Source of the DNA: Dehalococcoidia bacterium
GTDB lineage: Bacteria; Chloroflexota; Dehalococcoidia; UBA6926
NCBI GenBank assembly: GCA_965205915.1
Contig: OZ242191.1
Location: 1,070,003-1,134,002, forward strand
Reading direction: 5' to 3'
DNA length: 64,000 nt
This document shows positions 2,479 through 59,784 of the stretch, in pieces. Numbering within the stretch: position 1 is the first letter of the stretch; every line of letters starts with the position of its first letter. Under the pieces are notes generated by a model. The model saw only the letters and a program-made list of their open reading frames with translations, searched no databases and was not told the DNA's origin. Position numbers and translations under genes: made by a program.

Positions 2479-3480
2479 ATGGCAACGCCCTATCTGCTTG
2501 GAGTCGATATCGGCGGAACTCAAACTCGCGTCTCACTAGCCCGTACGCCGCGCGGCGCGATGCTGCGTTCCGTGTTTTCTTCCCCATCCCGAGCTGACCC
2601 CAGCATCCTGATCGACGGCATTGTCGATGCGGCATCAACCCTGGCCCGAGAGGCGGACGGCGAAATCATCGCCGGCGTCGTCGCAGCCGCCGGCACGGTC
2701 GATACAGCCACGGGCACGATTGTCGAATCCCCCAATCTACCCATGGTGAAAGACTTTGCTGTGGTGGAGGCCCTTTCGAGTCGGCTCGGCTGCCCCATCG
2801 AAGTCGACAACGATGCCACCGCTGCCGCGTACGCAGTGCATCGCATGGGCGTGGGGCGCGGGACGCGGGAGATGATCTATCTCACCATCAGCACGGGCAT
2901 CGGCGGCGGGATTGTGTCGGGCGGAAAACTGCTGAGGGGCATCGCGGGTGCTGCCGGAGAGTTTGGCCACATGACGATCGGCCTGTACCGCGGCATTCAA
3001 TGCGCGTGCGGGCTGTCAGGCTGCTGGGAGACGATGGCCTCCGGCACGGCGATTGCGCGAATGGCACGGATTCGCATCGAGGGGGGCGAGGACTCGAGCC
3101 TCGTCGAAATCATCCAGGCAAAGGGGCCTGAGAGCATCACTGCTCGCGATGTATTTGAGGCGGCGGAGCAGGACGATGCGCTGGGCCGTGCCGTGGTGGA
3201 TGAGGCGGGCTATGCGCTGGGCGTAGGGCTGGCAAATATCGTCAATATCTTCAATCCGGAACTGATTGTGTTGGGCGGGGGGCTGGCTCGCGGCCAGGAT
3301 GATTTTGTCATGCACGGCATCAGCGTCGCGCGGGAGCGGGCGTTCAAGCTCCAGAATCGCACCGTGCGCTATGAGGTTACGGAGCTCGGCGACGACAACG
3401 GGCTGCGCGGCGCGCTTTTGTTGGCGCGTGAACTGGCATCACGGATTCACCGCGAGGCCGGACGGGCGGCCCGGGAATAA
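2479..3480 (+). CDS. ROK-family sugar kinase (glucokinase/N-acetylglucosamine kinase-like)
   Basis: 333 aa. N-terminal 'LLGVDIGGTQTRV' ATP-binding motif and Cys-rich 'CACGLSGCWE' zinc motif of the ROK family. Confidence 0.8.
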   Translation: MATPYLLGVDIGGTQTRVSLARTPRGAMLRSVFSSPSRADPSILIDGIVDAASTLAREADGEIIAGVVAAAGTVDTATGTIVESPNLPMVKDFAVVEALSSRLGCPIEVDNDATAAAYAVHRMGVGRGTREMIYLTISTGIGGGIVSGGKLLRGIAGAAGEFGHMTIGLYRGIQCACGLSGCWETMASGTAIARMARIRIEGGEDSSLVEIIQAKGPESITARDVFEAAEQDDALGRAVVDEAGYALGVGLANIVNIFNPELIVLGGGLARGQDDFVMHGISVARERAFKLQNRTVRYEVTELGDDNGLRGALLLARELASRIHREAGRAARE

Positions 3481-3491
3481 GGACAGGCCAC

Positions 3492-4211
3492 ATGGAAGGG
3501 ACAGCACACGAGGGCGAGGCGCTGGATTACGTCAGCATCACGCCGACGGACTACGAGGCATCCAGAGAGTATCCGGTCATCATCCTTGTACACGGATACG
3601 GCGCGAGCATGTACGACCTCGCGGGGCTCTCGCCGGGCATCAGCCAGACGGATTATGTGTATCTCTGCCCAAACGGCATCGTGTCGTTCGATATTGGCGG
3701 GGGGCAAATGGGGTTTGGGTGGACGACGCCGGGCGGATTCAACGATGAGGCAGAATCACAGCGCGCGGAGGACGCATTCGAGGCATTCATGAATGAGGTC
3801 TCGGCGCCGTACAAGGTTCAGCCGGGTAAGACGCTTGTTGTCGGATTCTCGCAGGGAGGGGGCATTGCGTATCGCTACGGCCTGACACGACCGGAGATGT
3901 TCGCGGGTGTCGCCGCTCTCAGCGCGTCGCTTGCTGAGCCCGAGACGTTGCTGCCGCGATTGCCTGATCTCAAGACGCAACCCATCTTCATTGGGCACGG
4001 CAATCAGGATCCCGTCGTGCCCCTGGAACGCGGGCAGGATGCCTGCGCGCTGTTGGAGTCGTGGGGGTACGGCGACTGCACGTACAACGAGTACGCGGGC
4101 GCGGGGCACGAGATCACACCGACAGAGTTACGTGATCTGGCAGCGTGGGTCGCCCGCGTTCTTCCACCTTCAACCCCCGGGGTGTCTCCGGGTGGGATTA
4201 TTTTGCCGTGA
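3492..4211 (+). CDS. Phospholipase/carboxylesterase-family alpha/beta hydrolase
   Basis: 239 aa. Nucleophile elbow 'GFSQGG' and a later His, typical of esterase/LplA-like hydrolases. Confidence 0.6.
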   Translation: MEGTAHEGEALDYVSITPTDYEASREYPVIILVHGYGASMYDLAGLSPGISQTDYVYLCPNGIVSFDIGGGQMGFGWTTPGGFNDEAESQRAEDAFEAFMNEVSAPYKVQPGKTLVVGFSQGGGIAYRYGLTRPEMFAGVAALSASLAEPETLLPRLPDLKTQPIFIGHGNQDPVVPLERGQDACALLESWGYGDCTYNEYAGAGHEITPTELRDLAAWVARVLPPSTPGVSPGGIILP

Positions 4212-4236
4212 TGGCAGCGGCTTACTCCACGAATAG

Positions 4237-4779
4237 ATGCGTATCGGACTGATTTCAGATACGCATGTGCCGGAGGCCGGGGAGCGGTTGCCGGGCGAGG
4301 TGTTTGATTTGCTGGCCAGTGTGGACATGGTCATGCATGCGGGCGACATGCATATCATCGACGTGCTGGATTGGCTGGAGGTCATCGCGCCGGTGGTGGG
4401 GGCGCGGGGAAATGGGGATGGCGATGGATTTCGTCCGCCTTTTCCCGACAATGACCCCCGCGTTGAACACGCGCAGGTGCTGGAGCTTGAGGGGGCGCGT
4501 GTCGGGCTGATTCATGGGTTCCCCTTGCCGTCGGACACTCCGTGGGTCACGACGGAGACGCTGATGGACCGCTATTTTGGCGGGGCCGTCGATGTGATCG
4601 TGTTCGGCGATACTCACATTGCGCACGTGGAGCGGACGGTTGGGGGCGTTCTGATGGTCAATCCGGGCAGCCCTGCCCTGCCGCGCAATATCCGCGAGCC
4701 GGGTCACGTCGGGGTGCTCACCATCGAGGATGGTGAGGCGTCGGCGGAAATTTTGGCACTTACCAGTTTGGCGTATTAG
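4237..4779 (+). CDS. YfcE/MJ0936-family metallophosphoesterase
   Basis: 180 aa. 'LISDTHV', 'GDMH' and 'GDTHIAHV' metal-binding motifs. Confidence 0.75.
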   Translation: MRIGLISDTHVPEAGERLPGEVFDLLASVDMVMHAGDMHIIDVLDWLEVIAPVVGARGNGDGDGFRPPFPDNDPRVEHAQVLELEGARVGLIHGFPLPSDTPWVTTETLMDRYFGGAVDVIVFGDTHIAHVERTVGGVLMVNPGSPALPRNIREPGHVGVLTIEDGEASAEILALTSLAY

Positions 4780-4786
4780 GGGCGAT

Positions 4787-6961
4787 ATGACGCAGTTGGA
4801 TTCTCCGCTGGCCATTCTCAAGTCGCGGTTTGGGTATGACGATTTTCTGCCTTTGCAGTCTGAGATTATTGAGAACGTTCTGGCGTCTCGCGACTCGCTG
4901 GTTCTTATGCCGACGGGGGGCGGAAAGTCCCTTTGTTATCAGTTGCCCGCTCTGGTTCTCGGAGGAACAACGCTTGTTGTATCGCCGCTGATCGCGCTTA
5001 TGAAGGATCAGGTGGACGCGCTGAATGAGTCGGGCATCCCGGCGGGGTTTATCAACAGTTCGCTGTCGGCATCGGATTCGCGGCTAGTGGAGAGGCAGGT
5101 GCGGGAGGGGCGCGTGAAGCTGCTGTATATTGCGCCTGAACGGCTGGCGCTAGAGGGGTTTCGCAAGTTCCTGCATGAGTTGAACATCAGCCTCATCGCT
5201 ATCGATGAGGCGCACTGCATCTCCGAATGGGGCCATGAGTTCCGCCCCGATTACCGCAATTTGCGACAGCTGCGTGAGGAGTTTCCATCGACGCCGGTGA
5301 TTGCGCTGACAGCCACGGCGACGGAGCGGGTTCGAGATGACATTATCGGTCAGCTTGGGTTGCACGAGGGCCGCGTATTTGTTTCCAGTTTCAATCGAAG
5401 CAATCTCAATTACACGGTGTGGCCCAAGAGCGAGGCATGGGAACGGCTCTTGTCTCTCCTGGAAAGTCACAAGGGCGAGTCCACCATCATTTATTGCTTC
5501 TCGCGACAGGAGACCGAGGACCTGGCCACTGATCTGACCGCACGGGGTTTTGAGGCTCGGCCGTACCATGCCGGCCTGGACGGCGGGACGCGCCGTCGCA
5601 CGCAGGATGATTTCATACGGGATCGGGCTCACATTATCGTCGCGACTATCGCGTTCGGGATGGGGATAGACAAACCTGATGTGCGGCTGGTTGTTCACTA
5701 CAGCTTGCCGAAATCGGTGGAGAGTTACTACCAGGAGACCGGGCGCGCGGGCAGGGACGGGTTGCCTGCGGAGTGCGTCCTGTTCTATGCGTCCGCGGAT
5801 AAGGCCAAGCAAGACTATTTCATCAATCAGATTGTTAGTGAATCTGAGCAGCGAGTTGCCCGGGAGCAGATGGCGCGAATGGTCGAGTTTGCGCAGCTGT
5901 CCACTTGCCGCCGACGGTATCTGATGCATTACCTGGGAGAGGAATGGGAGCACGAGAACTGCGGCGGTTGCGATGTCTGTATTGAGCCCAGAGAGGAATT
6001 TGATGCGACTGAAATCACGCAGAAGATCCTGTCTGCTGTGATTCGTACCGGCGAGAAGTTTGGGGCGGGCCACATCATTCGTGTGCTACGGGGTGGTCGG
6101 GACAAACGCATCCTGGAGCTGGAGCACGATAAGTTGAGCGTGTACGGCATCGCGCGGGATTCCGAAAGGTCTCAACTCAGGGAGATCATCGGACAGCTGG
6201 AATCGCGGGGACTATTGGCGACGGCCGGCGATACCTATCCGGTCCTGGCAATGACGCCTGCGGGGCGGGAGTTTCTGCAGATGCGCCGGACGTTGTCGCT
6301 GCCTCGGCCGCTGGACGGCCTTGGAGCGCGGAGAACAGCTTCCGGGCCATCACGCTCCTCGACGGAGATTGCGTTCGATGAGCGGCTATTTGAGGAGTTG
6401 CGCGTGTTGCGCAGGCGGCTGGCGGACGAGAGGGATGTCCCATCTTTCGTGGTATTTGGCGATGCCTCCCTACGGCAGATGGCCGCGCGTTTTCCTGAGA
6501 ATACGGATGAGTTCGGTCGGATTTCCGGTGTGGGCGCGGCCAAGCTGGAGCAGTATGGGGCCGACTTTATTGGGGTGATCCAGGCTTACATTGAGGCGCA
6601 TGGACGGCCGAATATTCAGGCGCCGGAAGAGCAGCCGGAGCGGGAACGGCCTGAGCGGCGGCTGGGGGCTACTTTTCAGGAGACCCGCGAGTTGTTGGCC
6701 CGAGGACTGTCAATCCCGGAAATAACCGAGCAACGGGGTCTCGCGGAGACGACCATCATCGGCCAAATTGAGCGCCTCGCCGAACAAGACGATTCGCTTG
6801 ACCTGTCCCATGTGATGCCGGACGCCGCGACGATGCAGGAAATCGAGAGGGCTTTCGACATCTGCGGCGCGGATTTCCTGAGACCCGTGTGGGAGTTTCT
6901 GGAGGAAAAGGTTAGTTACAGCGACATACGGCTGGCGCGTATTCAGTTGCGGCGTGGGTAG
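4787..6961 (+). CDS. recQ: ATP-dependent DNA helicase RecQ, with an extra C-terminal HTH-like region
   Basis: ORF 4730..6961; the likely start is the ATG at 4787 (MTQLDSPL). DEAH box 'IAIDEAHCISEWGHEFR', zinc-binding Cys cluster 'CRRRYLMHYLGEEWEHENCGGCDVC', and an HRDC-like region. Confidence 0.9.
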   Translation: MTQLDSPLAILKSRFGYDDFLPLQSEIIENVLASRDSLVLMPTGGGKSLCYQLPALVLGGTTLVVSPLIALMKDQVDALNESGIPAGFINSSLSASDSRLVERQVREGRVKLLYIAPERLALEGFRKFLHELNISLIAIDEAHCISEWGHEFRPDYRNLRQLREEFPSTPVIALTATATERVRDDIIGQLGLHEGRVFVSSFNRSNLNYTVWPKSEAWERLLSLLESHKGESTIIYCFSRQETEDLATDLTARGFEARPYHAGLDGGTRRRTQDDFIRDRAHIIVATIAFGMGIDKPDVRLVVHYSLPKSVESYYQETGRAGRDGLPAECVLFYASADKAKQDYFINQIVSESEQRVAREQMARMVEFAQLSTCRRRYLMHYLGEEWEHENCGGCDVCIEPREEFDATEITQKILSAVIRTGEKFGAGHIIRVLRGGRDKRILELEHDKLSVYGIARDSERSQLREIIGQLESRGLLATAGDTYPVLAMTPAGREFLQMRRTLSLPRPLDGLGARRTASGPSRSSTEIAFDERLFEELRVLRRRLADERDVPSFVVFGDASLRQMAARFPENTDEFGRISGVGAAKLEQYGADFIGVIQAYIEAHGRPNIQAPEEQPERERPERRLGATFQETRELLARGLSIPEITEQRGLAETTIIGQIERLAEQDDSLDLSHVMPDAATMQEIERAFDICGADFLRPVWEFLEEKVSYSDIRLARIQLRRG

Positions 6962-16007: not shown

Positions 16008-16155
16008 GAACTGCCTGATTCTCCCTACATCCCGCTTGATTCAGTGTAGGCGCGGCGGGTGGGAGTCACAAGCGGGGGGGGGCTTAGCATAGGCGCTAGA
16101 TTGCATCGGTAGCTTGGCCGCCACATCCCACAAGGTATTGGCCTACAATAGATGC

Positions 16156-16518
16156 ATGAGCATGTTCAGGGTTGATATCAGCGTTTCAGGCGGGCCGGAT
16201 AGTGAGGCTCAGACTGTGGGAGCACTCGTCGATACCGGCACGATGCACACCGTGCTGCCGGGCAAACTGCTTCGGGACATTGGCATCAGCCCCACGCTGA
16301 CGACGGAGTTTGAGCTGGCGGACGGCAGTGTCGTTGAGTTCGAGGTGGGAACTGCGCTTGTGGCGATAAACGGGTACGACGCTGTTACACCGGTCGCGTT
16401 TGGCCCCGACGACGCTGAGCCGCTACTCGGCGCAGTTGCGCTGGAACTCATGGAATTGCTTGTCGACCCGAAGAACCGCAGACTCATCCCAACGGGTCGT
16501 GGACGCCGGCATCTGTAG
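16156..16518 (+). CDS. Retropepsin-like (clan AA) aspartic protease, paralog 1
   Basis: 'ALVDTGTMHTVLP' DTG active-site motif. About 50% identical to paralogs at 16541 and 57048. Confidence 0.6.
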   Translation: MSMFRVDISVSGGPDSEAQTVGALVDTGTMHTVLPGKLLRDIGISPTLTTEFELADGSVVEFEVGTALVAINGYDAVTPVAFGPDDAEPLLGAVALELMELLVDPKNRRLIPTGRGRRHL

Positions 16519-16540: not shown

Positions 16541-16897
16541 ATGGGACTTTTTGGCGTAGATATTCGGGTGGCCAATCCTGACGGCACCCAGGCGCGAACT
16601 GTGGACGCGCTTGTGGATACGGGGGCGTTGTACACGACTGTTCCCAGCTCCATGCTTAGGGAAATCGGCGTCGAACCCAAAGAATCCAGGGCCTTCGAGC
16701 TTGCGGATGGGTCAACAGTGGAGTATGAGGTGGGATCGGCAATTGTCTCAATCAACGGGCGTCAGGCCCTGACACCGGTTGCCTTTGGCCCGGACGACAC
16801 GGAGCCCTTGCTTGGCGCAATGGCAATGCAACAGATGGAGCTTGCCATTGACATGTCCCGCGAAATGCTCGTCAATGGGCGTAGGCTACGAATGTAG
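16541..16897 (+). CDS. Retropepsin-like (clan AA) aspartic protease, paralog 2
   Basis: 'ALVDTGALYTTVP' DTG motif. In tandem with paralog 1. Confidence 0.6.
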   Translation: MGLFGVDIRVANPDGTQARTVDALVDTGALYTTVPSSMLREIGVEPKESRAFELADGSTVEYEVGSAIVSINGRQALTPVAFGPDDTEPLLGAMAMQQMELAIDMSREMLVNGRRLRM

Positions 16898-55389: not shown

Positions 55390-55476
55390 GCCGGGGTGGC
55401 GGAATGGCAGACGCGGCGGACTTAAAATCCGCTTCCCGATAAGGGAGTGTGGGTTCGAGCCCCTCCCCCGGCACCA
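55390..55476 (+). tRNA. tRNA-Leu (TAA), class II
   Basis: Acceptor gccgggg/ccccggc, anticodon loop ctTAAaa, long variable arm, CCA encoded. Confidence 0.8.
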
Positions 55477-56257: not shown

Positions 56258-56438
56258 TTTCCACGGATCGCTCGACTTGATTGGTCGAAGGCGGCCCTAA
56301 GAGGCCGCATGGGCCCCCGCCTTCGCGGGGGATTCGGGTTGGACACCCTCCCATGTGACATCTCCGTTTGCGCCCTGCGTGACGTTCGCGTTACAACCCC
56401 AACGGACGACCAAGCACAAACCGATGGGGGATATTGCC

Positions 56439-56996
56439 ATGACCACGACGAATGAGAATGAGGCGACCAGTGTTGATGAGGAGCGCCGGCAGGAAGCCGC
56501 TACTGAACAGGCTGGCGGAGACGCTGACGGGCACGCGGAGTCGGACAGCGGAGAGGCATCGACGGAGGTGCAGACGTCCGTAGACGACTTACAGTCTGAG
56601 TTGGCGGCGCGGGATGAGCGAGTGTCCGCGCTTGAAGAGCAGGTGATCTCGCTGGAGCGGGAGCTCTCGTCGACGGTATCGCGATACCGACTGGCGTTGT
56701 TGGATGCCGCGCCGGAGGTGCCGGGCGATCTCGTCGGTGGGGAGTCGGCGGAGGAGCTGGAGGCCTCACTCGCAAAGGCGAAGGGCGTTGTCGAGCAGGT
56801 GCGTTCCCGATTGCTGGAGGGGATGGAATCCGCTAGCCGGGGTACTGAGCGGTCCGATGACGGTGATGCGACGGGGCAGGACACCGAGCCTGTCGTTGGA
56901 CGGATACCGGCGGGAGCGCCGGCGCGTAGCATGGACGACGGCTCGGCGGATCTGAGCGCGCGGGACAAGATTGCGCTGGGGTTGGAGCGGTTGTAG
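56439..56996 (+). CDS. Acidic coiled-coil hypothetical protein
   Basis: Protein-like ORF. Start assumed at MTTTNENEATS. Strongly acidic with heptad stretches. Confidence 0.3.
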   Translation: MTTTNENEATSVDEERRQEAATEQAGGDADGHAESDSGEASTEVQTSVDDLQSELAARDERVSALEEQVISLERELSSTVSRYRLALLDAAPEVPGDLVGGESAEELEASLAKAKGVVEQVRSRLLEGMESASRGTERSDDGDATGQDTEPVVGRIPAGAPARSMDDGSADLSARDKIALGLERL

Positions 56997-57047
56997 GGGG
57001 GCGGGCTCCTCGGTTCCGAGAGCCACGAAGGTCAACTCGCTGTACAA

Positions 57048-57414
57048 TCGGAATATGGGACAGTTCGAAGTGCGAATGACCATTTCCAATCTCTCCGGTG
57101 AGAATGAGCGGGACGTTGATGCCCTTGTGGACACCGGATCGCGGCGTACAATGCTGCCCGGCGACCTGCTGCGGCAGATGCAGACACCCGTTAGATGGAC
57201 GGGCCAATTTGAGATGGCCGATGGCCGCGTGGTTGAGATGCCCGTAGGTGAAACGCGCGTTGCGGTGAACGGAATGGATGTGGCAACGCAGGTCATCTTC
57301 GGCCCGGACGGATGCCAAGCAATGCTTGGCGCGATAACCCTGCAAGAACTGGAGCTCGTCGTCGATGTCCCAAATGAACGGCTTGCACGGGATGTGGGGC
57401 CGTTTCACGTGTAG
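57048..57414 (+). CDS. Retropepsin-like (clan AA) aspartic protease, paralog 3
   Basis: 'ALVDTGSRRTMLP' DTG motif. Aligns with the 16156 and 16541 paralogs. Confidence 0.55.
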
Positions 57415-57420
57415 CAACAC

Positions 57421-58110
57421 TCAGGCATTCCGCAGGTTAATCACGTGCCCTTCACCTACGGCCCTCTTAAGTTGGGCACCAAGGTTCCCATCAAGGTCGC
57501 CAAGGTAGACGTCAACATCCTGTTCCTTGAGATTTTGAATGACTTCTGAATAGTCCCGATCCTTCGCAATGAAGACGAGTATTGTTTCTTGCGGCTCTTG
57601 GCCACAGTCACTTCTGACCTGGGAAATGAGTTCCTCGTCCATATTGATGTCGTCTTCCCATACACGCCACCCGGTTTCCGTAAGATTTTCGGTTGCCGCA
57701 GCCTGGTTCACTCCGGCAAAAGCCTTGAACCTCTGATATGAGGTACCGATAAAACGTTTTTGTAAGGCAGTCCTGATTCCGTCACTTACACCCTGAACTC
57801 TATTGGCTGCTCTTCCTACGTTTTGGAAGTCCCAGAAAACTAATAGTCGTGTCCGTCCAGTCGTCTTCTTGGCCATTGGCCGCCTCCTTCTAAAGAACTC
57901 CGGTGTGAATTTGCGTTCCGTCGCAATGCTGTAGAACTTCGCCAAGTTCTTGGCATCGGGAGGAGTTGCGCCCGTCTCCCATCGAGACAAGGTATTCTGT
58001 GGGACACCGAGCAATTCGGCCATTGCGGTCTGTTTTAGCTCCAGTTTTGTTCTAAGCTCCACAAGCGCCTGGTGCCGGAACTCATACCTGTCCCGCTCCT
58101 CTGTTGTCAC
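57421..58110 (-). CDS. HTH-XRE (Cro/C1) fused to a NYN (PIN-like, LabA) nuclease domain
   Basis: N-terminal 'QTAMAELLGVPQNTLSRWETG' HTH. C-terminal 'LLVFWDFQNV...LVFIAKDRDYSEVIQNLKEQDVDVYLGD' NYN acidic residues. Low GC. Confidence 0.6.
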   Translation of the reverse strand: MTTEERDRYEFRHQALVELRTKLELKQTAMAELLGVPQNTLSRWETGATPPDAKNLAKFYSIATERKFTPEFFRRRRPMAKKTTGRTRLLVFWDFQNVGRAANRVQGVSDGIRTALQKRFIGTSYQRFKAFAGVNQAAATENLTETGWRVWEDDINMDEELISQVRSDCGQEPQETILVFIAKDRDYSEVIQNLKEQDVDVYLGDLDGNLGAQLKRAVGEGHVINLRNA

Positions 58111-58251
58111 GGATTTGTTTCATCCTTGTCTGTGTGAGTAACATCCATAACACATTGTATCACCATTGACGGATGTATCCATAATTGTTAGCCTATAGAA
58201 CCGCAGCGGCAGGCAGGGTCCATTGGGCAGGGAAAGGGAGTATATGGAGTC

Positions 58252-58566
58252 GTGGCAAGTAATCAACCAGGCGCAGATGCACGGCCACTTCTGACAATCA
58301 GCGAACACGCGATGATTCGTTCTCAGCAGCGAGGCATATCACGCGAGGTCATCGATGTGCTGTACAAGTTCGGCTCACGCGAATGGAGCGATGGTGGGCT
58401 GGCCTTTAGCCTGGATAACAAAGCGAGGCGGCGAATGACTAAGGCCGTGGGGTCACAATTGGCGGCCGAAATGGCAGAACAGGCAAATGGCTGTTACATC
58501 GTGGTTTCTGCAGATGAGCCGGTAGTCATCACGGTGGCAAGGCAATTGCGCCGCAAGAAACGTTGA
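58252..58566 (+). CDS. DUF4258-family (BECR-fold, RelE-like) putative toxin
   Basis: 'LLTISEHAMIRSQQRGISREVIDVL' is the HAxxRxxERGI signature. C-terminal 'YIVVSADEPVVITV'. Confidence 0.6.
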   Translation: MASNQPGADARPLLTISEHAMIRSQQRGISREVIDVLYKFGSREWSDGGLAFSLDNKARRRMTKAVGSQLAAEMAEQANGCYIVVSADEPVVITVARQLRRKKR

Positions 58567-58588
58567 GCAGCACTTCACTGATACGAAC

Positions 58589-58626
58589 AGCGCCCCGGCG
58601 GGTATGAACCCGCCGGGGCGCTTTCT
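58589..58626. terminator. Bidirectional intrinsic terminator
   Basis: Perfect 15-bp inverted repeat AGCGCCCCGGCGGGT-atgaa-ACCCGCCGGGGCGCT followed by TTTCT. Lies between convergent genes. Confidence 0.55.
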
Positions 58627-58650
58627 GCTGAGTCTGTTTCGAGGCTAGCC

Positions 58651-59784
58651 CTACCGCAGGTTGCCCTGCAACTGCTCTATGGTCTCTTCGGCTTCGTTTA
58701 CCATGTCCATCAGGATCTGGAGCGCCGGCTTCTTCTCCTTCAGCATGCCGCTGATCTGGCCGGCCGGGTTGCCGATGAGGTCCAGTCGCCCCGCCTTGCG
58801 CGCGGCTCGGGTGAACGGCTCCTGGATCAGGCCCTGCAGCGGCATCGGGAGCGCATCCAGCCCGGAGGCCGCCCACTTCAGCTTCACGGCGTTCTGATAC
58901 GAGCGCTGCTGCTTGCCGGATGAGAATTTGCTCGTGGTGAACTCATCGGAGCGGCCACCAAGAATTTGCTCCTGGTGCGCCTCCGGAATGTGGTTCTCCT
59001 CTGCGACGAGGAACGCAGTGCCGACCCAAACGCCTTGCGCGCCAAGCGCGAGCGCGGCCGCTACGTGGCGACCGGTGCCGATGCCTCCCGCCGCGAGAAC
59101 GGGCCTCGGGGCGACTTCATCGACGACCTGCGGCACCAACACGAATGTTGAGATGTTGCCTGTGTGACCGCCCGCCTCCGTGCCCTGCGCGGTGATGATG
59201 TCCACGCCGGCGGCAACCTGTCGCTGCGCGTGTCGAACTGCGCCCGTCATGCCGATGAGCAACATGCCTTGCGCATGGGCCTGCTCCGCGAACCACTCCG
59301 GCGGCTCGCCGGTTGCGGCGGCGAACAGGGGCACCTTGTTGTCCAGAACGATCTCAAACTTCTTGTTGAGCAGCTCGGTGGACATAGGCTCACGCTCGGA
59401 GACATCCTCCGCCTCGAAGCCGTGCTCTTCCAAGAGCTCTTGCACGAGGGCCACGTGCCGCGGATACTGCGGCGCAACCTGCGCGTACAGATCTCGATTG
59501 CTTGCGGCGGTCACCTCGGCGCGCGTGGCGGGAACGAGGAAATCCATGCCGTACGGCCTGTCGCCTACGAGCGACTTGAGTTCGCGGATACCAGCGTCCA
59601 TCTCATCCAGATTGCGGAAGTTGTCACCGAGCACGCCGAGTCCGCCGGCGTTGGTGATGGCCGCGACCATCGCGACGGGCGTCGGCGCAACGTCCTGACT
59701 GCCTCCCACGGCCATACCGGCCAGGAGTATCGGATATTCCATGCCGAGCGTGTCGCAGAGCGGTGTTTGAAGTCTGTTTGCCAT
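58651..59784 (-). CDS. NAD(P)H-dependent flavin oxidoreductase / nitronate monooxygenase, paralog 1
   Basis: Start MANRLQTPLCDTLGMEYPILLAGMA. NMO FMN-binding blocks 'GGIGTGRHVAAALALGA'. Confidence 0.8.
   Translation of the reverse strand: MANRLQTPLCDTLGMEYPILLAGMAVGGSQDVAPTPVAMVAAITNAGGLGVLGDNFRNLDEMDAGIRELKSLVGDRPYGMDFLVPATRAEVTAASNRDLYAQVAPQYPRHVALVQELLEEHGFEAEDVSEREPMSTELLNKKFEIVLDNKVPLFAAATGEPPEWFAEQAHAQGMLLIGMTGAVRHAQRQVAAGVDIITAQGTEAGGHTGNISTFVLVPQVVDEVAPRPVLAAGGIGTGRHVAAALALGAQGVWVGTAFLVAEENHIPEAHQEQILGGRSDEFTTSKFSSGKQQRSYQNAVKLKWAASGLDALPMPLQGLIQEPFTRAARKAGRLDLIGNPAGQISGMLKEKKPALQILMDMVNEAEETIEQLQGNLR

Follow-up and report, generated by a model that had tools for sequence, protein, structure and literature searches.

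A divergent HTH-NYN and DUF4258-family gene pair of Dehalococcoidia lies in a hypervariable mosaic cassette: a putative conflict-type module

Small proteins of the BECR fold encoded next to a helix-turn-helix (HTH) protein have been described in the MqsR/MqsA and DUF4258-MqsA toxin–antitoxin (TA) modules of the RelE/ParE superfamily (Gerdes 2025, PMC11980606). In this study, we have analysed a locus of a Dehalococcoidia bacterium whose composition recalls these modules. It lies in a stretch of 64,000 nucleotides of contig OZ242191.1 (positions 1,070,003 to 1,134,002 of the forward strand; hereafter, the window) and consists of a minus-strand gene in which an XRE-type HTH is fused to a NYN (PIN-like) domain, here called HTH-NYN, and a divergent plus-strand gene coding for a small protein of the DUF4258 family. 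As in the MqsR/MqsA and DUF4258-MqsA modules, a small BECR DUF4258 protein stands beside an MqsA-like XRE HTH protein that probably autoregulates; unlike in them, the genes are divergent instead of forming an operon or a fusion, a NYN RNase domain takes the place of the zinc-ribbon toxin-binding domain of MqsA, the alleles of the two genes do not co-vary, and neutralisation within the pair is only putative. The wHTH-WYL-WCX repressors BrxR and CapW (PMC9122601, PMC11662680) also combine an HTH with a second nucleic-acid-related domain and are divergent from a probable target gene, but the likeness is one of layout and not of sequence, the regulator of the window being an XRE HTH plus a NYN fold. 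In the case of the NYN/LabA-like PIN nucleases (PF01936; the NYN domain of MARF1, 5yaa/6fdl, and VPA0982, 2qip), the window protein differs in that its NYN is fused to an N-terminal XRE HTH rather than to OST-HTH/LOTUS or RRM domains, and belongs to a subfamily confined to Dehalococcoidia and Chloroflexota, found in the fused form only and scoring under the Pfam threshold. Finally, the ImmR/ImmA- and CI-type repressors of integrative elements are XRE-HTH proteins divergent from early or Cro-like genes beside an integrase, as is one relative described below, and a protease gene is often adjacent, as it is to HTH-NYN; in contrast to them, HTH-NYN ends in a NYN RNase and not in a peptidase or oligomerisation domain, and the protease next to it is a retropepsin-like aspartic protease, not the metalloprotease ImmA.

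The superfamilies to which the parts belong (XRE HTH, NYN/PIN-like and BECR/DUF4258) are already known. The partners of DUF4258 proteins listed in the literature are HicB-like and MqsA/HTH proteins; the statement in an earlier sequence-based note on this DNA (the original prediction) that DUF4258 is normally paired with a DUF2283 antitoxin could not be verified, and its remark that such a partner is lacking here is borne out, since neither DUF2283 nor another canonical partner was found when looked for at the locus. No function has yet been demonstrated for bacterial NYN/LabA proteins or for the DUF4258 branch of the RelE/ParE superfamily (PMC5499597, PMC11980606), and a full-text literature search for 'HTH-NYN' found nothing. 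The locus brings the two families together in what would be a simple wiring, made up of a repressor, a control region of 141 bp and a small effector, in a group of bacteria that are uncultured or hard to culture and whose defence and TA repertoire is poorly known.

What is new here is that the pair is kept at nine loci and, as the main result, that it forms a hypervariable mosaic cassette. The genes around the cassette (RelA/SpoT, the S20 gene rpsT, a tRNA-Leu, an SbcD-like phosphoesterase, an acidic coiled-coil protein and a pair of NMO genes) were found again in the same neighbourhood in metagenome-assembled genomes (MAGs) of Dehalococcoidia, which places the window in a chromosome of this group of Chloroflexota. 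Nine distinct loci have this NMO to RelA neighbourhood, and the divergent pair is present in all of them (9/9). Across these syntenic genomes, protein identity is 88–100% for NMO and 90–97% for the phosphoesterase (metallophos), 52–87% for HTH-NYN and 27–100% for the small protein, which falls into two allele classes: A, with the window and loci L001–L003, and B, with L004, L006, L007, L145 and L146. Sliding DNA identity, above 90% at first, drops to about 45% precisely where the small gene and spacer lie and to 50–75% over HTH-NYN, and then recovers.

The alleles are shuffled within the cassette. Comparison of L004 with L007 gives 98% identity for the small gene, 97% for the HTH and only 46% for the NYN, and a recombination breakpoint between the two halves of the protein in these relatives maps near the linker (57850-57888). 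Locus L003 joins a B-like HTH to an A-type small gene, and the small genes of the window and L001 show no difference even at synonymous sites, with a synonymous divergence (dS) of 0.37 for HTH-NYN and 0.07 for the flank; the dS of the cassette lies either far above or far below that of its flanks. In the pairs compared, nonsynonymous divergence (dN) is 4–27 times as high in the cassette as in the NMO gene at its flank, and a dN/dS ratio of 0.12–0.24 for both genes indicates purifying selection, so that the diversity represents old alleles exchanged by recombination and not decay. As a proxy for a physical interface, co-variation of the small-protein alleles with either half of HTH-NYN was looked for, and none was found.

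The GC content of the cassette is low: the HTH-NYN gene has 0.51, the spacer 0.46 and the small gene 0.55, compared with 0.60 for the window, which agrees with the low-GC patch noted originally; the HTH-NYN gene falls below its flanks in GC at 28 of the 28 loci checked. Hypervariability, mosaicism, turnover of cargo and low GC are, taken together, hallmarks of conflict systems (TA, immunity and defence), and the locus bears the evolutionary signature of such a system, in that recombination has moved ancient alleles into backgrounds that are nearly identical.

Both open reading frames (ORFs) exist as originally predicted, and the peptides then quoted (FWDFQNV, AKDRDY and DVDVYLGD in HTH-NYN, HAMIRSQQRGISREV in the small protein) are all found. 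The Cro/C1-type HTH proposed for the minus-strand gene stands, as it passes the gathering threshold of Pfam HTH_3 (PF01381, E=1.5e-9) and has the five-helix fold. The nearest characterised HTHs are of the MqsA type (TIGR03830, 3.8e-9, for the HTH part only; PDB 3fmy, 4.8e-5), and the MqsA profile (TIGR03830/PF15731) is matched only at positions 66-107 of its 127, with 36.4 bits against a cut-off of 61.8; the CxxC..CxxC zinc-ribbon domain of MqsA is absent from HTH-NYN, which has a single Cys. A linker segment, residues 78-84 of which have a model confidence (pLDDT) below 50, leads to the C-terminal domain. This domain has the alpha-beta-alpha NYN/PIN fold proposed for it, at a PF01936 score that is under the gathering threshold (21.1 bits versus 24.2, E=4.8e-4), and several homologues carry precomputed PF01936 matches. 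The membership of both proteins, in NYN and in DUF4258, rests on fold and family context and not on Pfam cut-offs.

In the profile alignment, D94 (of the WDFQN motif), D158, E159 and D184 correspond to Asp358, Asp426, Asp427 and Asp452 of human MARF1, and the four-acidic-residue metal cluster of NYN domains is thus present, D94 and D184 being nearly invariant in the family. In MARF1 these residues form the active-site metal cluster, and the double mutation of D426 and D427 strongly lowered RNase activity (PMC6294520). D186, part of the 'DRDY' motif quoted originally, is Asn in MARF1 and varies within the HTH-NYN family. Judged from these positions, the NYN domain looks catalytically competent and is probably a metal-dependent RNase. 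A search with a NYN-only profile returned solely HTH fusions, for which 'XRE family transcriptional regulator' is the fullest annotation, and all are within the two taxa named above, Dehalococcoidia and Chloroflexota. Some Chloroflexota homologues of 397-400 aa (P0014-P0017, L024, and L060 at 4001-5194) have a tandem pair of NYN domains after the HTH.

The small protein matches Pfam DUF4258 (PF14076) with 16.3 bits, under the cut-off of 25 and over residues 16-42 only, and it adopts the BECR fold. The originally proposed DUF4258 assignment, which this score does not carry, gains from the family as a whole: an exhaustive profile search gave 884 cluster representatives at E≤0.001, typically of 85–130 aa and aligning with almost all of the conserved part of the query, DUF4258 is matched individually by 46 members of a sample of 72 (E<0.01; best 1.3e-6), and plasmid homologues are named 'DUF4258 domain-containing protein' by PGAP. 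The alignment of the 72 members shows H19 and R27 to be invariant and A20, R23, Q26, G41, Y82 and T94 nearly so, and the window protein keeps the conserved H19, R23, Q26, R27, Y82 and T94. A search of PDB sequences with the small-protein profile gave nothing meaningful. Only four database homologues were found at first, because public gene callers shorten the small gene to 84 or 69 aa, with loss of the invariant H19, or miss it, and this mis-calling hides the association of the pair from protein-database searches. That the ORF is a real gene follows from the dN/dS of 0.12–0.22 between its alleles.

The spacer between the two start codons measures 141 bp, not the 'thirteen dozen' (156) given originally, and contains a palindrome, GGATGTATCC, at 58171-58180, together with direct repeats, ATCCATAA, at 58143-58150 and 58177-58184. 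A promoter-like site for HTH-NYN is made of a -35 element, TGGATA (58181-58176), and a TG-extended -10 element, TACAAT (58159-58154); TGGATAC-type repeats are found in the spacer and the -35 element overlaps the palindrome. The syntenic relatives, whose spacers otherwise cannot be aligned, again have GGAT-N2-3-ATCC or TGGATAC-type repeats in front of HTH-NYN. Binding of HTH-NYN to these repeats is a prediction from the DNA. Many other HTH-NYN loci (L009, L012, L018, L020, L023-L026, L028, L030, L032, L033, L035, L147 and others) have CTACAG/TCTACA repeats straddling a near-consensus TTGACA-N17-TATAAT promoter (ATCTACAGA...TGTAGA elements), these hexamers being enriched 8–12 fold over the coding background in the 200 bp upstream of HTH-NYN; they look like a family-wide candidate operator, unlike the GGATA-type repeats of the window clade, and their placement over the promoter would fit an autoregulating repressor.

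A hidden antitoxin ORF was looked for in the spacer. Just one ORF there reaches 30 aa or more (58120-58308, minus strand); it runs into the small gene, and as spacers cannot be aligned between alleles, this candidate was rejected. No antitoxin-like ORF therefore has room in the spacer or is conserved there, and both domain assignments stand, the two points on which the original prediction had staked itself.

Beyond the syntenic loci, the pairing was followed from both sides. When a hidden Markov model (HMM) of the small protein was run on the six-frame ORFs of 56 HTH-NYN genome loci, all from Dehalococcoidia or Chloroflexota MAGs, the partner was detected only in the syntenic clade, and the association of the two families is lineage-specific. 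A second recurrent small partner occurs in a different subclade of HTH-NYN, where a basic, N/P-rich ORF of about 55-65 aa precedes the HTH-NYN gene by 12-90 bp in the same direction (motif ...NQRAN..NPNN...(H/N)(K/R/Q/T)A(A/S).DNRS.Q(L/M)NPN...; L008 3810-3977, L010 3795-3989, L021 3711-3914, L022 684-941, L034 3752-3937, L063 3720-3938, L064 194-412). One HTH-NYN homologue, 57% identical (L147, 1-6540), has a large serine integrase (phrog_95, 3.5e-108) on one side and, on the other, a divergent run of small overlapping genes, several Cro-like HTHs among them, a position like that of a lysogeny repressor. A search of a phage collection gave only weak matches to CI-repressor HTHs.

From the side of the small protein, 65 loci of relatives had enough upstream sequence for their partners to be assessed. 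A divergent HTH-WYL(-WCX) regulator lies 56-284 bp upstream in 16 of them, and regulators of this type are established repressors beside defence systems (PMC9122601, PMC11662680). Another 16 have a co-directional upstream partner, which in 12 cases belongs to one family, c0 (about 257 aa, abutting the small gene, with an HTH-like segment seen by eye and no Pfam match), and in four to others. The layout of the window, a divergent HTH fused to a second nucleic-acid domain, is a positional analogue of this recurrent arrangement. In a Thauera plasmid, an XRE-HTH gene overlaps the start of the small-protein homologue, which is followed by a UDG-like gene; this HTH was considered as a specific relative of the window HTH and rejected, as the two have no specific similarity.

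Our preferred reading, held tentatively and at a little under an even chance, is that of a lineage-specific, transcriptionally wired cassette of a repressor-RNase and a BECR effector, of the conflict (TA- or defence-like) type. HTH-NYN would be a repressor of the mobile-element kind, whose XRE/MqsA-like HTH would bind the GGATA-type repeats of the divergent region and repress both its own promoter and that of the neighbouring small gene, and whose C-terminal NYN is probably an active metal-dependent RNase. The 104-aa BECR-fold protein would be an RNase-type effector or toxin held down transcriptionally, to be released when a trigger inactivates the repressor. We read the locus as a conflict system because the pair is retained at 9/9 loci in a hypervariable mosaic, because low GC extends across the family and mobile contexts occur in it, and because an HTH partner is habitual in the small-protein family. 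By analogy, the layout would be one of regulator plus effector, parallel to the divergent HTH-WYL regulators, rather than that of a co-transcribed type II TA operon, and the cassette is best described as a putative conflict-type module of undescribed make-up, in no named system.

Several observations weigh against this reading. The roughly 50 other HTH-NYN genes are single genes in varied contexts with no DUF4258-like gene beside them, and HMMs for HTH and NYN, run on 80 metagenomic loci of small-protein relatives, found no NYN and one marginal HTH match, so that the co-occurrence which the original prediction proposed as a check holds at the nine syntenic loci and fails in both of these wider sets. 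Synteny is common to the nine loci, and one event inherited by all of them may account for the conserved adjacency. Members of the small-protein family are also encoded in multi-gene operons, together with UDG-like, HNH and helicase-nuclease genes, and given these contexts the small protein may not be a stand-alone toxin. In the control region, the GGAT-NN-ATCC palindrome is not rare by itself (two in the window versus 1.6 expected), and a promoter scan found no good sigma-70-like promoter for the small gene. Finally, in a PADLOC-DB 2.0 scan the only matches were of a generic HTH kind, with the N-terminal parts of RmrA and HTH_VI, and the small protein had none, and a PHROG scan of the pair likewise gave nothing beyond generic HTH.

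The genes that accompany the small-protein relatives deserve a remark of their own. A gene for a TM0106/RecB-like nuclease-helicase, for a UDG-superfamily protein or for an HNH endonuclease often follows or flanks them (downstream in L067, L070, L119 and L124; also L150 1-2436, L075, L076, L081, L092, L149 2827-3606, L090, L110, L112 and L137), and such members may be parts of larger operons for DNA damage or defence and not of simple TA pairs.

A serious alternative, doubtful as it appears to us, is that the two genes are unrelated neighbours in a cargo hotspot, HTH-NYN being a self-contained, autoregulated regulator-RNase, or the relic repressor of a decayed integrative element, and the DUF4258-like gene an orphan. 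The two families are indeed almost always apart, their allele histories at this locus are incongruent, the same site gains and loses the retropepsin gene and a DUF4160/HTH pair, and one relative sits in the lysogeny-module-like position beside an integrase. Against this, both genes are kept under purifying selection in all nine genomes in spite of repeated allele replacement, whereas other cargo at the site is variable, and the divergent arrangement with an HTH regulator recurs independently in the small-protein family.

We consider it unlikely that the pair is a true type II TA module of unusual gene order, in which HTH-NYN would be an antitoxin neutralising the DUF4258-like toxin by direct binding, through its NYN domain or linker, and autoregulating through its HTH as MqsA does. 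This proposal draws on the classification of DUF4258 as a BECR TA toxin of the RelE/ParE superfamily, with 17 DUF4258-MqsA fusions known (PMC11980606), on the MqsA HTH being the most similar to the window HTH among characterised proteins, on the frequent adjacency of small-protein relatives to an HTH protein, sometimes with overlapping genes, and on the retention of the pair at the nine loci. The genes are divergent across 141 bp, however, and not arranged as the co-transcribed operon of type II systems; the alleles do not co-vary (L003; L004 versus L007), which would be surprising if the two proteins met at a specific neutralising interface; the NYN domain retains an intact active site with no sign of degeneration; HTH-NYN mostly occurs without the small partner; and the zinc ribbon of MqsA is missing. 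We do not call the pair TA because of its divergence, the partnerless HTH-NYN genes elsewhere, the lack of NYN near the small-protein relatives, the absence of allele co-variation and the lack of a PADLOC match; the non-standard TA or defence module of the original prediction is thus partly supported, by the conflict-type signature, with these same points weighing against its TA side. A reading of HTH-NYN as an ordinary transcription factor or enzyme of RNA processing, inherited vertically, and of the small protein as a domesticated RNase, neither with a conflict or defence role, is very improbable, since the chromosomal syntenic site beside relA, rpsT and the NMO genes, the purifying selection on both genes and the link of bacterial NYN proteins to tRNA/rRNA processing by gene neighbourhood (PMC5499597) are opposed by the excess dN and mosaic recombination of the cassette, the low GC at 28/28 loci, the varying genomic contexts and copy number of the family, and the relative in a mobile-element context.

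The features of the cassette that we prefer to read as a conflict-type module are collected in Table 1.

Table 1. Coordinates of the cassette and its adjoining features in the window
Feature	Position	Strand	Description
HTH-NYN gene	57421..58110	(-)	229 aa, GTG start; XRE/MqsA-type HTH, basic disordered linker and NYN (PIN-like) RNase domain
HTH domain of HTH-NYN	57913..58077	(-)	About residues 12-66; recognition-helix motif NTLSRWE near-invariant
Linker of HTH-NYN	57850..57888	(-)	About residues 75-87, RRRRPMAKKTTGR; basic, low-confidence
NYN domain of HTH-NYN	57424..57855	(-)	Residues 86-229; D94, D158, E159 and D184 at MARF1 active-site positions
Divergent control region	58111..58251		141 bp between HTH-NYN and small gene
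Small DUF4258-family BECR-fold gene	58252..58566	(+)	104 aa, GTG start; putative RNase effector/toxin
GC-rich hairpin	58589..58622		15-bp stem, terminator-like; between convergent small gene and NMO gene
Retropepsin-like clan AA aspartic protease gene	57055..57414	(+)	Convergent with HTH-NYN, stops 6 bp apart; possible accessory

On the left side, the neighbour described as retropepsin-like is confirmed as such (Pfam Asp_protease_2, 26.3 bits versus a cut-off of 24.3; TIGR03698, 1.6e-10); its ORF spans 56971-57414, with homology supporting the ATG at 57055. The gene is present at six of the nine syntenic loci and is found again beside HTH-NYN in a distant second clade (L028, L033, L035, L037 and L056, at about 4700-5300), and L148 has a weak retropepsin-like match (3156-3392). 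It thus adjoins HTH-NYN in two or three unrelated contexts, in two clades convergently and with the stop codons a few bp apart. Two tandem retropepsin-like clan AA paralogues are also encoded between uvrA and a membrane-protein gene of the window (16114-16518 and 16541-16897, both on the plus strand), with no HTH-NYN or TA-like gene near them, and this small protease family is therefore multi-copy in the genome. The adjacency may point to a connection in function, the protease for instance acting on the repressor, or be due to chance, given the multi-copy family. In the former case one could think of a protease-gated repressor-nuclease, in which the retropepsin-like protease or another trigger would cut the linker of HTH-NYN, derepressing the BECR gene and freeing an active NYN RNase from the DNA, as an ImmR/ImmA-like switch for abortive infection or mobile-element control built of different parts; an arms race would then keep the locus hypervariable. 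We give this elaboration little credence. The syntenic site itself behaves as a hotspot for small cargo: in L145 (5155-5882) a TA-like pair of DUF4160 (80 aa) and XRE-HTH (162 aa) genes is found between the protease and coiled-coil genes.

On the right side, the hairpin is followed by two convergent NMO-type oxidoreductase genes. Of the perfect bidirectional terminator proposed there, the hairpin is real (folding free energy, dG, -42.2 kcal/mol; z -5.98) and is kept with a compensatory change in the closest relative, L001, whereas its T-tracts are weak, for which reason the terminator scan gave no call. An Rfam scan of 56900-58700 found no RNA family, only four weak matches, all driven by the hairpin and far below gathering scores.

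No mobile-element borders were identified within the window. A tRNA-Leu(TAA) gene (55390-55476, plus strand), with rpsT on one side and the SbcD-like phosphoesterase gene on the other, is about 1.6 kb away from the cassette, and no repeat or att-like evidence ties the two together. Adjoining the cassette, the gene for the acidic coiled-coil protein (56355-56996, plus strand; 213 aa, no significant family) varies more among relatives than the outer flanks do, with DNA identity dipping to 34–57% near the equivalent of L004 5701-5850.

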